Shown one piece after another: positions 4,524 through 39,556 of a stretch of 64,000 nt of DNA. The notes below the pieces were generated by a model. It saw only the letters and a program-made list of their open reading frames with translations, did no database searches and was not told the origin of the DNA. The stretch is from an uncultured Gammaproteobacteria bacterium. Lineage in GTDB: Bacteria; Pseudomonadota; Gammaproteobacteria; JACCXJ01. The stretch lies in NCBI GenBank assembly GCA_963764725.1, contig CAVXTM010000018.1, positions 608,001 to 672,000 of the forward strand, in the 5' to 3' direction. The translations under genes were made by a program, and so were the position numbers. How positions within the stretch are numbered: position 1 is the stretch's first letter; each line of letters opens with the position of its first letter.

Positions 4524-4553
4524 ATAATGGCAGCTGCCGGCCCAGAAGCGGAC
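4524..4553 (+). repeat. short recombination-site-like repeat
   Basis: ATAATGGCAGCTGCCGGCCCAGAAGCGGAC shares TGCCGGCC(C)AGAA with 12173-12184 and the AATG.C..CT..GG.C spacing with 11411. Confidence 0.5.
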
Positions 4554-4643
4554 GGTCACCCCTATCTGTGCCTTGACAGGTGCGCGCCACACCTATTGAA
4601 ATTCATACGCATTGCGGGTCGTACCCATGCGTGTAGTTTTGAA

Positions 4644-6969
4644 ATGGGTAAGAAGAGTCGTTTAAAAAAGACTCGCCGAGAGGCGAGAAAGCGTCTTCCG
4701 CTAGGACTTGAGCTGTCACAATTCCAGGATCCTTTCGCAGGAATTCCGGTTCAACTACCTCACGCAATGATTGACTGAGGTCGGACGAAAACAAGCGCAG
4801 GAATTTGTCACGACCACCGCTAAGATTCAGGACCTCATCGATGCCACCAACCCTCTGTGCCTGATGGCATCCATGGCCTTCTACGGGCTTATCGTAGGCA
4901 TTCGCGACGATGGATCGATCGTTTCGATCGTTGGGTCGAACAAACGGGAAATCCTTCCTGCGCACGTCGAATTAGCACAGGCTCTATGCCTTCGTGTGCC
5001 GGCGCATTCGCATTCGCACATGCCTGTCTTGGGCAAAAGTATGCAATCCGTGTTTGATACCGTCGGCGATTGGTCGGATCAATTCCACTGGAAGCGCCTT
5101 GTCCAACTTGACACCGCTCTGAGCGAAGCGGAGCGCGATCGCTTGCTAGTCCAAGAGCACATCCGTTTAGACACGCAGATTGTTCGAAACTGGGGCTACT
5201 ACGATCATGTCAAACGCATCGCACAGGAGATCATGGCGCCGCTCGATGCGCGCTTCGAGGCCCTCTACGGATTCAAGGCTACCGAACTGCTTGCGATGTT
5301 CGATCATCTCGTTCACGAATGTGAGATTCGACTCAACGCTCACTGGGAGCGCCTGCGCGGCATGATAAAAGCGACAACGCTTCGCCATGCGGTCGTCGCG
5401 TACTACACCGCGTTTCCCGACCTCAAGAATAACGTGCAGGATTTTCACGCGCACCTACGCGCTCGCCGTGTCAATCTCATGCAGGCCAAGACGATGATGT
5501 TATCCCACTCGGATTTGCGGCTGCCCGCGATCTTCACTTTTTCACCTGCACATATCGCGGCAGCGATTGGACGAACGGCAGACACGGTTATCAGAGCGCT
5601 TGGAAAACTCAGCCTTAGCTTTGGTGATTTGCAGGGCACCAACGTCGAGCACTTCTTCATGAACAATCCGGTTTGGACAAAACCCGTAGTCAAGCTGGAG
5701 GACCGCTCCTATTTTTGCATCATGCCCCGATCGTTCTTTGCATTCCCGTTCGAAACGTTTACCACACTGGTTCGAGAAGACGAGGCGTTGCGCAAAGCGT
5801 ACGAAAATCGACGCTCGGACTATCTGGAGCAAACGAGCGCAAAGGTGTTTGAGGCCGCTTTCCCGGGCGCGAAGCTCATAAAGAACTTCAAAGGGTATAC
5901 GCCAGACAAAAAACAAATCGAAAGCGACCTCATCGTGCAGGTCGATTCTTTCTTGATCCTCATGGAAGCCAAATCCGGGCGCATTTCACCAGCAGCTCGC
6001 CGCGGCGCTCCAGAGAGCTTGGGAGAGGATATCGATAAATTACTGATCGAACCGTCTCGTCAATCACAACGGCTCCAAAAGGCCATAGAGTCGGCCCAGA
6101 GAGGCGAGGCAGAAACGGAGGCTTTTGCTGAGGCGTTCCCCGTTAACCTTTCGACGATCCATCAAGTGCTGCGTTTGTCCGTGACACTCGAATATATGGG
6201 CGTTCTTCAAACCAACATTAATGGCCTAAGAACGGCGGGCTATGTACCGCCCGACATAAAGGTAGCGCCTGCACTGACTCTCGCAGATCTGGAAATTGTC
6301 TTTGATATACTAAGGACTTCACCCGAACGCATACATTATTTGATCCGACGCGGCGAGTGGGAAGGCAGCGCAGACTACACCGCGAATGAAATCGACCTGC
6401 TCGGAACGTACCTCAAGACTGGCCTCAACGTAGGCGATCTAGAGTTCGCGCACGCTCATCTCATGCTAGTTGGCCAATCGAAATCGATCGACGATTATTA
6501 CGAAGCTAGGCAGCTAGGTATCTCCAAAGAAAGACCACAGTACCAAGCAACGCCCTGGTGGCGCGATATGCTTCAGCGCCTTCGGACGAAGAGGCCGCAC
6601 CGCTGGATCGAGGCCGCAGCCGTCTTGCTGTGTGCCGGACTTGAACAGCAGATGGAAATCGAGAATCGGACAAAGGGCGTTATCGCCGATGTCAAGAAAC
6701 GCCGTGAGCGTGCGGCTTCGCGCAACGGATTGATATTCAGACCGGCCAAAGGCCGCAGCGAAGCAATCGCCGTGCTTGCATTAATGCGTACGGAGATACC
6801 GGATCGGCGTCAATTGATGGAGAATCTTACCGCACAGGCTTTCTCCGAAAATGCAGCCCTGCGCCAATGTGTGGCGATCACGCTCAACGTTGACGAACCG
6901 ACGTATCCGTACAGGTCGCTGGCATGGTTCACTAAGCCGGCAAAGAAAAACGTACCGACGTTGACATAA
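4644..6969 (+). CDS. large hypothetical protein with PD-(D/E)XK/NERD-like nuclease motif; probable frameshift near 4740-4770
   Basis: 732-aa ORF 4771-6969 with YLE...F...IESDLIVQVDSFLILMEAKSG. The upstream MGKKSRLKK... (ATG 4644) in another frame is the likely true N-terminus. Confidence 0.7.
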
Positions 6970-7100
6970 TGATCTCCGAAAAACCCAGCGACTGTGTAGC
7001 GGATGACAAGCTTACTTAGCCGATCCCCGGTTGGATTCTACGACGGGTTCTACCAAAAAGAGCAACCGCAACCACTTTTGCATCGTTCGGAACCCGGTTC

Positions 7101-7130
7101 GTGAAAGTCCGCTCAGGGTCGAACTGGGAC
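7101..7130 (+). repeat. short recombination-site-like repeat
   Basis: GTGAAAGTCCGCTCAGGGTC matches GTGAATGACTCCTCCGGGTC (11411-11430) at 15 of 20 positions. Confidence 0.55.
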
Positions 7131-37800: not shown

Positions 37801-37979
37801 TTCCGAAGCATCGGCGAAAAGCAATGGCGCGAAATGGCACCTCCCCGCGCCTTACCATGTCAGTAGCGACATTCCCAGTGCTGATGTGTTTATCTATCCG
37901 CAGAAGCGTACCCAAAGGATTTTCCCCGCGTTAGATGAACACTCGTTCGGTTTCTCATCCGGAGAGAGCGGGATAGGGG

Positions 37980-39497
37980 ATGAACCAGATCGCCGGAGCA
38001 GAGGCTCCGGAGCCAGTCTCGCTTGTTCGCCAGCTTGCCGACCAAGCGTTCTCAAGGGCTGCCGGTGCGCTGCTCATTCCAGGCAACAGCGTACACCTCT
38101 TGAAAGATGCACAGGAGAACTATCCGGCGTGGTTGCAGGCGATTGCTTCCGCCCGGCGAACTATCCACTTCGAGAACTACATCATCCGAGAGGATGACAC
38201 GGGACGCATGTTCGCCGACGCACTGATTGTTAAAGCGCGGGAAGGCGTGCGCGTGCAGCTGATTTACGACTGGATGGGAAATTTCGGCAAGACCTCTCGT
38301 AAGTTCTGGAATCACCTGCGCGAGGGAGGGATCGAAGTCCGTTGCTACAACCCGCCGCGCCTCGATAGTCCACTTGGCTGGCTCTCGCGAGATCACCGCA
38401 AGATGCTGGCGGTAGACACGCAGGTGGCTTTTGTCACGGGCCTGTGCGTCGGCCGAGAGTGGGTGGGCGAGCCTGAAAAGAATCTCGACCCTTGGCGCGA
38501 CACCGGTGTTGAGGTACGCGGTCCGGCGGTCGCCGAAATTGAGCGGGCATTCAAGCAAATTTGGGCGATGACGGGCGAGCCGATACTCGAAACGCATTCA
38601 CTCGGCAAAGAATTAGCCACTCCCGCCGGCGATATCGCCTTACGTGTTGTTGCGAGCGTGCCGAACGCCGCCGGGATGCTTCGCTTGGATCAATTGGTCG
38701 CCACGCTCGCGCACGAGAGGCTATGGTTGACGGATGCTTACTACGCCGGAACCCCATCGTACGTGCAGGCGTTGCGCGCCGCACGCCATCACGGGGTGGA
38801 CGTGAGGTTCTTGGTCCCCGGCGTGACCGACATACCGGTGCTGAGACTGCTATCGAGAGCCGGCTATCGCCCGCTGTTAGAAGCGGGCGTGAGAATATTC
38901 GAGTGGAACGGCTCGATGCTGCACGCAAAGACGGCGGTCGCTGACGGGCGGTGGGCGCGCGTCGGTTCAACTAACCTCAACCTTGCCAGCTGGCTTGGCA
39001 ACTGGGAGTTGGACGTCGTCGTGGAGGACGAAGAGTTCGGACAGCGGATGGAAGAGATGTATCTCGAAGATCTGACGAACGCGACGGAGGTCGTCTTGGA
39101 CGCTAAGCATAGAGTGCGTGCTCCGGGCGCGCCTACACGCGCGCGAGGTGCGATATCGAGCGGGGCAGGAAGTGCGGGACGCGCGGCCGCCGGCGTGTTT
39201 CGCATCGGGAATAGTGTCGGCGCGGCAATGAGCGATCGCCGGGTTCTCGAACCGGTCGAAATGCGCATTATGACTGCCGCTGGCTTGCTGCTTCTAGGCT
39301 TGGCCGTCCTATTTGCACTTTTTCCGCGCCTGCTTGCCTATCCGCTCATCGCCATTATCGTATGGCTCGCAGTAGCGCTGCTCTATAGAGGCTACAAGCT
39401 CAAACGGGAAAGGGGACGAGGCATACCTCATCCAGCGCAAATCACCTTACAACAAGCTGTAGAAGACGCACATGAGGTTGAACGAAAGAAAGAGTAA
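37980..39497 (+). CDS. cardiolipin synthase / phospholipase D (ClsB-like)
   Basis: Two HKD motifs ([20 protein letters not shown]), WRDT, GSTNLN. Confidence 0.92.
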
Positions 39498-39519
39498 GCA
39501 AAACAGCTGGTGTCTCAGT

Positions 39520-39556
39520 TGAATTTCGGCTATCGGTCCTATTCTGTTGAAAAACA
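39520..39556 (+). mobile_element. site-like repeat interrupted by an IS1182-like terminus
   Basis: TGAATTTCGGCTATCGGTC (same spacing as 11412-11430) directly followed by CTATTCTGTTGAAAAAC. Confidence 0.4.

Follow-up and report, generated by a model that had tools for sequence, protein, structure and literature searches.

Does a tyrosine recombinase of little more than 200 residues, lying among short related sequences, mark a gene-cassette system other than the integron? The question is raised by a 64,000-nucleotide stretch of an uncultured Gammaproteobacteria bacterium (lineage JACCXJ01; contig CAVXTM010000018.1, positions 608,001 to 672,000), hereafter the window. A sequence-only reading had proposed that it holds a second, non-integron cassette system in which this recombinase ('PWNKG') shuffles modules between eight short sites. 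The proposal stands in part: sites of this kind are arrayed around unrelated modules in other genomes, but in the window itself every recombinase copy is defective and integron-type attC hairpins are interleaved with the sites. From sequence comparison we give roughly even weight, for and against, to the view that the sites are recombination sites paired with a recombinase of ~211 amino acids, consisting of a catalytic domain only, and that together they form a non-integron, cassette-like site-specific system, which here would be a fossil.

The recombinase unit and its sites

Relatives of the recombinase are encoded by 488 stretches in a collection of contigs with one genome per species, of which 80 were kept as loci for comparison; these are mostly metagenome-assembled contigs, often 0.7–3 kb long, from hosts that are mainly Gamma- and Betaproteobacteria. 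Against its closest relative (L001), homology of the window starts 1–2 bases past the pentanucleotide GGGTC, at 11432, and ends at 12182. Over many pairs of loci the conserved stretch runs from ~75–90 nt upstream to ~90 nt downstream of the recombinase gene, and by alignment the unit between two cores, ~0.75–0.8 kb, is what genomes conserve. Just outside its limits lies a motif that reads TCGGCCAGAAGCGGAC(A/G)TT at the right end and its reverse complement at the left; at up to six mismatches it was present at 29 of 78 right ends and 24 of 77 left ends versus 4 of 147 control stretches. The recombinase gene thus lies between two sites in mirror orientation, each comprising a 5-nt core (GGCCA, with GGGTC as its mirror-class counterpart), a 9-nt arm that is conserved (GAAGCGGAC) and, after it, RTT; the opposite arm is poorly conserved. 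In the subfamily of the window the unit end, read by eye, is a 9-7-9 dyad (GGTCGCTTG, CCGGCCA, GAAGCGGAC), the arrangement normally seen at core sites of tyrosine recombinases; outside this subfamily conservation does not extend to the inner arm. Between Gamma- and Betaproteobacterial hosts the sequence of the conserved arm does not differ, and it accompanies recombinases that are 65–90% identical.

A matrix of 19 nt was trained on 51 distinct unit ends from other genomes, with the window excluded. Six window matches reached 13 bits or more versus 1.28 expected (six were reached in 1 of 300 simulations), and four reached 16 bits or more versus 0.26 expected (none of 300 simulations). All matches of at least 13 bits fall within the first 17.3 kb, and one repeat accounts for three of the six, which are therefore not independent. 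The matrix recovers six of the eight sites proposed earlier, at 4538, 7104, 11414, 12175, 13979 and 15149 (Table 1); the match at 17303 is within the chance range and that at 39520 stays below 8 bits. The sites had been placed uniformly on the + strand, which is wrong, since 4538 and 12175 mirror the others. The rough consensus first offered is not significantly enriched as a pattern (19 matches at up to two mismatches versus 12.55 ± 3.51 expected, a number reached by 5 of 100 shuffles). Its first part, AATG.C..CT..GGGTC, is the left form of the site and its 'AGCGGAC arm' the right form; the sites therefore occur in two mirror orientations and not on one strand. The failure of that consensus and of its last two sites is what might be expected if all short matches other than the three long repeats were chance similarity in GC-rich DNA. 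This account is very improbable, because the independently trained matrix finds its four strongest matches in the 17-kb variable region of the window and because the motif is strongly enriched beside homologous genes elsewhere (see below). Chance is largely refuted for 4538, 7104, 12175 and the three repeats, and the site at 17303 is probably outside the family.

The three long repeats are 58 bp in length. Compared by eye, copy 3 equals copy 1 exactly and copy 2 has two mismatches, and identity among the three ends directly after GGGTC, as the sequence-only reading had noticed. Beyond GGGTC, copies 1 and 2 regain 88–96% homology for ~215 bases, reaching the 5' end of the recombinase gene (repeat families D3–D5), and copy 3 is followed by a ~62%-similar recombinase remnant. 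The same outer 58 bp joined to three inner partners at GGGTC would be the trace of repeated integration or exchange at one class of site. The 58-bp repeat has no BLAST match in the 80 loci, and sequence conservation therefore does not extend to the outer segment; even between unit copies that are 99.9% identical, the outer 12 nt of the site differ.

As assembled, all three recombinase copies in the window are defective: one is full-length but frameshifted, one truncated and one decayed. Three-frame translations of the full-length gene (11498–12132) contain two frameshifts, the Tyr box lies beyond the second, and Pfam model PF00589 matches 11586–12095 (E = 5.7e-12). A homologue from another contig (P0001, 88% identical) leaves the frame at the same point (...KATL) as the first window copy, and the second frameshift is therefore common to two sequences. 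Codons ~21–27 of the gene (L-V/I-G-Q/P-K-P-P-L-K) spell the site motif (GTCGGCCAGAAGCC) at 11560–11585 and 14125–14150 and also in loci elsewhere (e.g., L067 at 5810). This internal copy lies 171 nt from the left site and inflates counts of partner sites; it is probably a coincidence of coding sequence, because its synonymous positions vary.

The family to which this gene belongs is large. With the middle reading frame as query, all 8,000 scored candidates fell at E ≤ 1e-3, the best matches being mostly 211 amino acids long, the typical length of the family. An exhaustive search with an intact homologue (P0005) gave 17,613 representatives of clusters at 50% identity at E ≤ 1e-3 and 1,081 at E ≤ 1e-30, many of them fragments or split, and 247 plasmid records carry the family at 60% identity or more. 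P0005 aligns to the catalytic domain of XerD (residues about 130–281) with the LRG, xxxRR, LLGH and RY Tyr boxes in register, and the PF00589 match together with the aligned Arg, His-x-x-Arg, His and Tyr boxes places the family in the tyrosine recombinase superfamily. Only the C-terminal catalytic half of Xer-type NCBIfam models is covered (XerC positions 124–282 of 295). P0005 scored 57 bits against XerC (cut-off 335) and 43 bits against XerD (cut-off 330), with model positions ~120–282 covered, and the homologues tested ranged over 43–61 bits versus cut-offs of ~330. For the FimB/FimE model NF007371, scores were 23.8–25.5 bits versus a cut-off of 222. The integron integrase model TIGR02249 gave 19.8 bits for P0005 and 27.2 bits for a plasmid homologue versus a cut-off of 265, matching model positions 232–297 only, in agreement with the earlier description of a catalytic domain without the IntI-specific insertion.

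Site arrays and break points in other genomes

Solo sites, which stand apart from any recombinase gene, were sought in the flanks of 77 loci (619,969 bases, outside ±300 nt of the gene; near-duplicates L030, L046 and L074 dropped). At 14 bits or more, 86 were present versus 7.2 ± 2.8 expected (maximum 12), a 12-fold enrichment. Relative to the right-end site of the gene, 68 have the same orientation and 18 the opposite one, and they are equally divided between its upstream and downstream sides. At least one solo site occurs in 35 of the 77 loci, at least two in 17 and at least four in seven. Their median spacing is 716 bp, and in five loci (L025, L032, L055, L002 and L017) they form arrays of mostly co-oriented sites, 0.3–1.4 kb apart, that bracket unrelated genes. 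Additional recombinase fragments were found only in L002, L018 and the window; the modules between solo sites hold no recombinase remnants.

Finished DNA gives the same pattern, on a plasmid of a Paraburkholderia megapolitana isolate (L084/L086), where 15 sites of at least 11 bits lie in 20.6 kb versus 1.1 expected. Among those of at least 12 bits, 13 of 14 fall within 13 kb of the 40 kb examined, a stretch that also contains two recombinase copies, and the sites separate small genes (GNAT, VapBC, GIY-YIG and hypothetical). Within the 40 kb no integron integrase was found, and two large recombinases nearby fail as integron integrases. Several sites on this plasmid (L084 at 7908, 8599, 12780 and others) have extra outer inverted words (GTCGRGC ... 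GCYCGAC) ~34 nt apart, and the full site may be longer and clade-specific. In pMOL30 and in the Pseudomonas aeruginosa, Thauera and Methylomonas plasmid contexts, the recombinase genes are isolated and have few sites.

Break points between related loci locate the exchange. Where near-identical units stand in different flanks, identity extends as far as matrix positions 7 to 9 (TCGGCCA), beyond which only the level of the consensus is left (9 unit ends, in 8 of 14 pairs). From the other side, the three repeats of the window share everything outward of matrix position 3 and break at 2|3. The exchange therefore falls inside the 5-nt core, GGCCA or, in the mirror class, GGGTC. Repeats and unit pairs thus agree with the earlier suggestion that the recombinase gene is bracketed by sites and that GGGTC is the exchange point.

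Modules are also gained or lost at these sites. Two Haliea assemblies (L032 and L052) have in common a 718-bp module that is 96.9% identical and extends exactly from site to site; in L052 it comes directly after the first module past the recombinase, and in L032 two extra modules stand between the same neighbours. The indel is bounded by 19-nt sites with differing upstream contexts. Of 26 high-scoring segment pairs between loci outside the recombinase, only this one clearly runs from site to site, and the window is in none of them. Between L031 and L039 the unit is 99.9% identical and a 644-bp flank 99.7% identical, yet this flank is inverted and lies on opposite sides. Six pairs (L024/L034, L073/L074, L017/L054, L028/L032, L043/L048 and L032/L052) share kilobases of sequence beside one end of the unit and diverge at the opposite end. 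Gene-content breakpoints had been expected to coincide with the sites, and in these other genomes both indel and synteny breakpoints do fall in them.

If the sites act as these patterns suggest, the conserved arm would be where the small recombinase binds and the 5-nt core where it exchanges strands. Circular modules could then be excised and re-integrated between co-oriented sites, and DNA between mirror sites could be inverted; the outcome would be an integron-like cassette array independent of the integrase IntI.

One-sided synteny breaks at unit ends are also to be expected from recombination between 0.8-kb repeats, and the unit could be a selfish element resembling an insertion sequence (IS), with long inverted ends and a preferred target. 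Solo sites would then be targets or leftover ends, flank changes would reflect homologous recombination, and no cassettes would be shuffled. Several properties fit. The unit has inverted ends of 25–76 bp (L067 scores 102), it is multi-copy within genomes, many contigs of 667–800 bp hold nothing else, and the many fragmentary or split family representatives agree with this account, as do short 'empty' palindromes with interiors of 21–23 nt that look like deletion derivatives. We nonetheless regard an IS-like element as improbable. The outer 12 nt of the site are not part of the conserved unit. Transposons of the IS and miniature inverted-repeat types have terminal inverted repeats that belong to the element, together with a target-site duplication; here inverted ends are present, but the outermost 12 nt vary between copies. 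The absence of recombinase remnants between solo sites and the strong co-orientation of those sites also argue against it, and the 19-nt sites bounding the Haliea indel offer too little homology for efficient RecA exchange.

The 'empty' palindromes consist of a left half, an interior of 8–23 nt and a right half (L004, 3371–3427; L006, 3528–3582; L032, 7028–7067). In L004 and L006 the interiors resemble the inner ends of the recombinase unit. These palindromes could be unoccupied sites or deletion derivatives.

Integron attC sites and other known systems

An alternative explanation, based on the integron, is that the sites are halves, right-hand (L'-R') and left-hand, of attC sites of an unusual kind, from sedentary integrons or from clusters of attC sites lacking integron integrases (CALINs). 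Modules would be moved by an IntI that is encoded elsewhere or has been lost, and the recombinase unit would be a passenger inside an attC. Classical attC hairpins do occur in the same region of the window, one of them supplying the GTT at which repeat copy 2 starts (Table 1). Some solo sites are imperfect palindromes of 55–125 nt (L002, L004, L005, L006 and L032). Duplexes of solo sites with upstream DNA average -12.2 versus -11.0 kcal/mol for controls, and 13 of 82 reach -16 or below versus 3–4 controls, although two of the three attC-like hairpins of the window itself also score weakly in this test. L056 and L044 have true integron integrases, matching TIGR02249 at 396 and 384 bits, as neighbours of the recombinase. 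The P. megapolitana array has the gene-then-site geometry and the toxin-antitoxin and GNAT cargo typical of cassettes. The motif also loosely resembles the attC-targeting primer HS286 (PMC10661359).

The anatomy of the sites argues the other way. An attC cassette boundary falls at G|TT, but unit identity extends no further than matrix position 7|8, ~10 nt short of the RTT or any GTT, and the triplet after the arm is RTT rather than GTT (first base A in 77, G in 54, C in 20 and T in 17 of 168). Hairpin potential also appears limited: 15 of 16 Haliea sites are without a significant hairpin (z from -4.05 to +1.43, one below -2). In the window, CCGCTTC of the site at 4538 pairs with GAAGCGG in a local hairpin, with a z of -0.1 for the 141-nt fold, and the site at 7104 has no hairpin partner (fold of 7095–7200, z = +1.3). 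Of the further tests for pairing, the matrix-based search for mirror partners is inflated by the motif-like stretch in the recombinase open reading frame (ORF), and the local-complementarity test has low power. By a crude measure, the longest stop-to-stop ORF, gene orientation relative to the sites is unbiased (14 same, 12 opposite, 11 with no dominant ORF).

Nor is an attI-headed array apparent: 78 of 80 loci have no IntI within ±6 kb, and none was found in the 64-kb window or in the 40 kb of the finished plasmid, although one may lie further away. The two loci that do carry one (L044 and L056) have no solo sites of at least 14 bits. Types of attC are taxon-specific, unlike the arm of these sites, which is conserved across bacterial classes. 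Taken together, these features make the attC explanation unlikely, though it retains appreciable weight.

Several observations weigh against a system run by the small recombinase. About 15% of solo sites have a mirror partner 55–125 nt away, like attC hairpins; genes on the finished plasmid are mostly followed by a co-oriented site, as in integrons; the likeness to HS286 and the interleaving of attC hairpins with recombinase sites in the window point in the same direction. Every recombinase copy in the window is defective, so that any activity here would need help in trans. Cores differ between the two ends of one unit (GGGTC versus GGCCA); this speaks against simple inversion between them, and each end therefore probably pairs only with its own class. 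Indels of solo modules are known from a single pair of genomes. The predominance of metagenome contigs among the loci and the multi-copy nature of the ~0.8-kb unit mean that one-sided breaks could reflect homologous recombination or mis-joins. The ends on which the matrix was trained were picked by their likeness to a by-eye consensus from the same loci, which about one-third of ends fit. Finally, excision, inversion and circle formation are predictions from sequence comparison for every member of the family.

Comparison with known systems helps to place the proposed recombinase–site pair. It resembles integrons in having a tyrosine recombinase, arrays of mostly co-oriented short sites between small unrelated genes (toxin-antitoxin pairs, acetyltransferases), modules gained and lost at the sites, and some sites that are imperfect palindromes. 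It differs in that the recombinase has 211 amino acids and lacks both the N-terminal core-binding domain and the IntI-specific insertion, the break falls in the GGCCA/GGGTC core and not at G|TT, most sites appear to lack hairpin potential, and the recombinase gene sits inside the array between mirror sites whereas that of an integron lies beside attI.

The shufflon of R64 also has asymmetric sites of ~19 bp, with the central region and one arm conserved but not the second arm, clustered by a dedicated tyrosine recombinase. However, its recombinase Rci has ~380 residues, and its sfx sites are inverted repeats inside the 3' end of one gene that support inversion only; here the enzyme has 211 residues and the sites are mostly direct repeats bracketing whole genes. 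FimB and FimE are likewise catalytic-domain-only proteins of ~200 amino acids, but the family scores far below the cut-off of their model, and the single promoter segment inverted in the fim system has 9-bp repeats at its ends and does not include the recombinases. Modules of the Xer/dif type (pdif, IMEX) are nearest by sequence and are also bracketed by short dyad sites; the recombinase described here differs in being dedicated and element-encoded, in its site sequence and in scoring far below the Xer model cut-offs. If the sites were attC halves, the nesting of the unit would recall the attC-resident IS1111-attC elements and group IIC-attC introns, which use a DEDD transposase and a reverse transcriptase, respectively, neither of them a tyrosine recombinase. 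Group IIC-attC introns are named in PMC3001079.

Neither the family nor such arrays are described in the literature searched, with subscription journals and bioRxiv supplements outside its coverage; the accessible parts of PMC9176274, PMC8138268 and PMC2864759 make no mention of the family.

A decayed variable island in the window

On the main reading, the system in the window is a relic: three defective recombinase units and two solo sites around a 2.2-kb gene are intermingled with attC cassettes in a 17-kb variable region (1–17.3 kb; Table 1). This region contains small ORFs, mostly without annotation, together with a TIR-NTPase gene, a transposase fragment and a toxin-antitoxin component; housekeeping genes of the ordinary kind fill the window from ~17.5 kb on. 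A scan of the 64 kb found no tRNA or tmRNA gene, so there is no tRNA-type attachment site, and the number of Rfam families detected was zero.

Table 1 Sites, recombinase units and associated features of the window
Feature	Coordinates	Strand	Remarks
Long attC-like hairpin (GTGAAC...GTTCAC)	1856–1990	+	Repeat family D2; fold z = -2.5
Solo site, R-type (CGGCCCAGAAGCGGACGGT)	4538–4556	+	16.3 bits; weak mirror half ~30 nt upstream (~4493–4512)
Cargo ORF, 732 aa (2.2-kb gene)	4771–6969	+	From the ORF list; between sites 4538 and 7104
Solo site, L-type as read on the + strand (AAAGTCCGCTCAGGGTCGA)	7104–7122	-	18.3 bits
58-bp left-end repeat, copy 1	11373–11430	+	Last 17 nt are an L-type site ending at exchange point GGGTC; matrix match 11414 (-), 13.3 bits
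Recombinase unit (stretch homologous to other genomes)	11431–12182	+	Homology to L001: 11432–11492 upstream, 12104–12182 downstream
Unit right end	12146–12193	+	Inner inverted arm, then core: GGTCGCTTG, CCGGCCA, GAAACAGTC; R-type site 12175–12193, 21.6 bits; conserved alignment block
Classical attC-type hairpin ending GTTAGCC	12925–13007	+	DNA fold -30 kcal/mol, z = -4.3; no matrix match
attC-like hairpin	13874–13945		GTTCAGC end meets repeat copy 2; fold z = -2.0
58-bp repeat, copy 2	13938–13995	+	Starts at GTTCAGC end of hairpin 13874–13945; matrix match 13979 (-), 16.3 bits
Second recombinase unit, 5' part	13996–14210	+	Leader and ~50 codons from 14062; cut off at 14210; repeat families D3–D5
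Unrelated ORF	14284–15099		From the ORF list; follows truncated second unit
58-bp repeat, copy 3	15108–15165	+	No attC hairpin upstream; matrix match 15149 (-), 13.3 bits
Third recombinase 5' region, decayed, more divergent	15166–15360	+	62% match of 15274–15325 to family D3; reading by eye
Marginal match in a palindrome with a 9-bp stem	17303–17321	-	10.8 bits, chance range; between a kinase-like gene and ald
Eighth site of the sequence-only reading	39520–39538	+	No matrix match of at least 8 bits; fits the earlier consensus only, with one mismatch

The 732-residue cargo protein had no Pfam or PADLOC match. A NERD domain occurs on 15% of one neighbouring protein cluster, which is a lead only. 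Applied to 14 cargo ORFs, PADLOC returned TIR-NTPase and cNMP-binding-domain matches and nothing else. The ORF at 2–1732 (-), cut by the left edge of the window with 577 amino acids inside it, encodes a TIR domain, a STAND-type NTPase and a winged helix, and weakly matches models of TIR defence proteins, among them Thoeris ThsB and Avs.

Other neighbours border the repeats directly. A C-terminal fragment of a Mutator-family transposase (10677–11177) lies immediately upstream of the first 58-bp copy, and, at the margin of the variable region, an antitoxin-type gene (15424–15648; Unstab_antitox, E = 1.7e-17) adjoins the remnant of the third recombinase. The right part of the long attC-like hairpin, which ends GTTCACA, recurs as a 106-nt repeat (1871–1976 and 12280–12385, 89% identical). 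Just downstream of the recombinase unit, the copy at 12280 has no left half, a sign that an attC may have been broken at this point.

Genes outside the variable region are also fragmentary. The alanine dehydrogenase gene ald (17584–18697) is split over two frames, with the N-terminal part at 17584–17931 and the C-terminal part at 17675–18697, and there are a catalase C-terminal domain (46799–47278), a piece of a 2-hydroxyacid dehydrogenase (57559–57897), a partial Na/H exchanger and a partial MMPL gene. They reflect either a decaying genome or assembly indel errors, which bears on the reality of the recombinase frameshifts.

On the wider scale, we tentatively suggest that the 211-amino-acid recombinase and its asymmetric ~19-nt double-stranded sites with a 5-nt core may constitute a second widespread cassette platform, independent of IntI and distributed over Proteobacteria and plasmids. 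Some integrase-less clusters resembling cassette arrays might stem from it, and the window would be a decayed example interleaved with attC cassettes. For the window itself, the outcome is more modest, namely that its 17-kb region is a decayed variable island whose recombinase copies are all defective as assembled. If confirmed, the family, present in hundreds of species-level genomes and in plasmids, would be a second way of capturing genes as modules, would explain some of the clusters of cassette-like sites that lack an integrase, and would offer a very compact recombinase-and-site pair for study.

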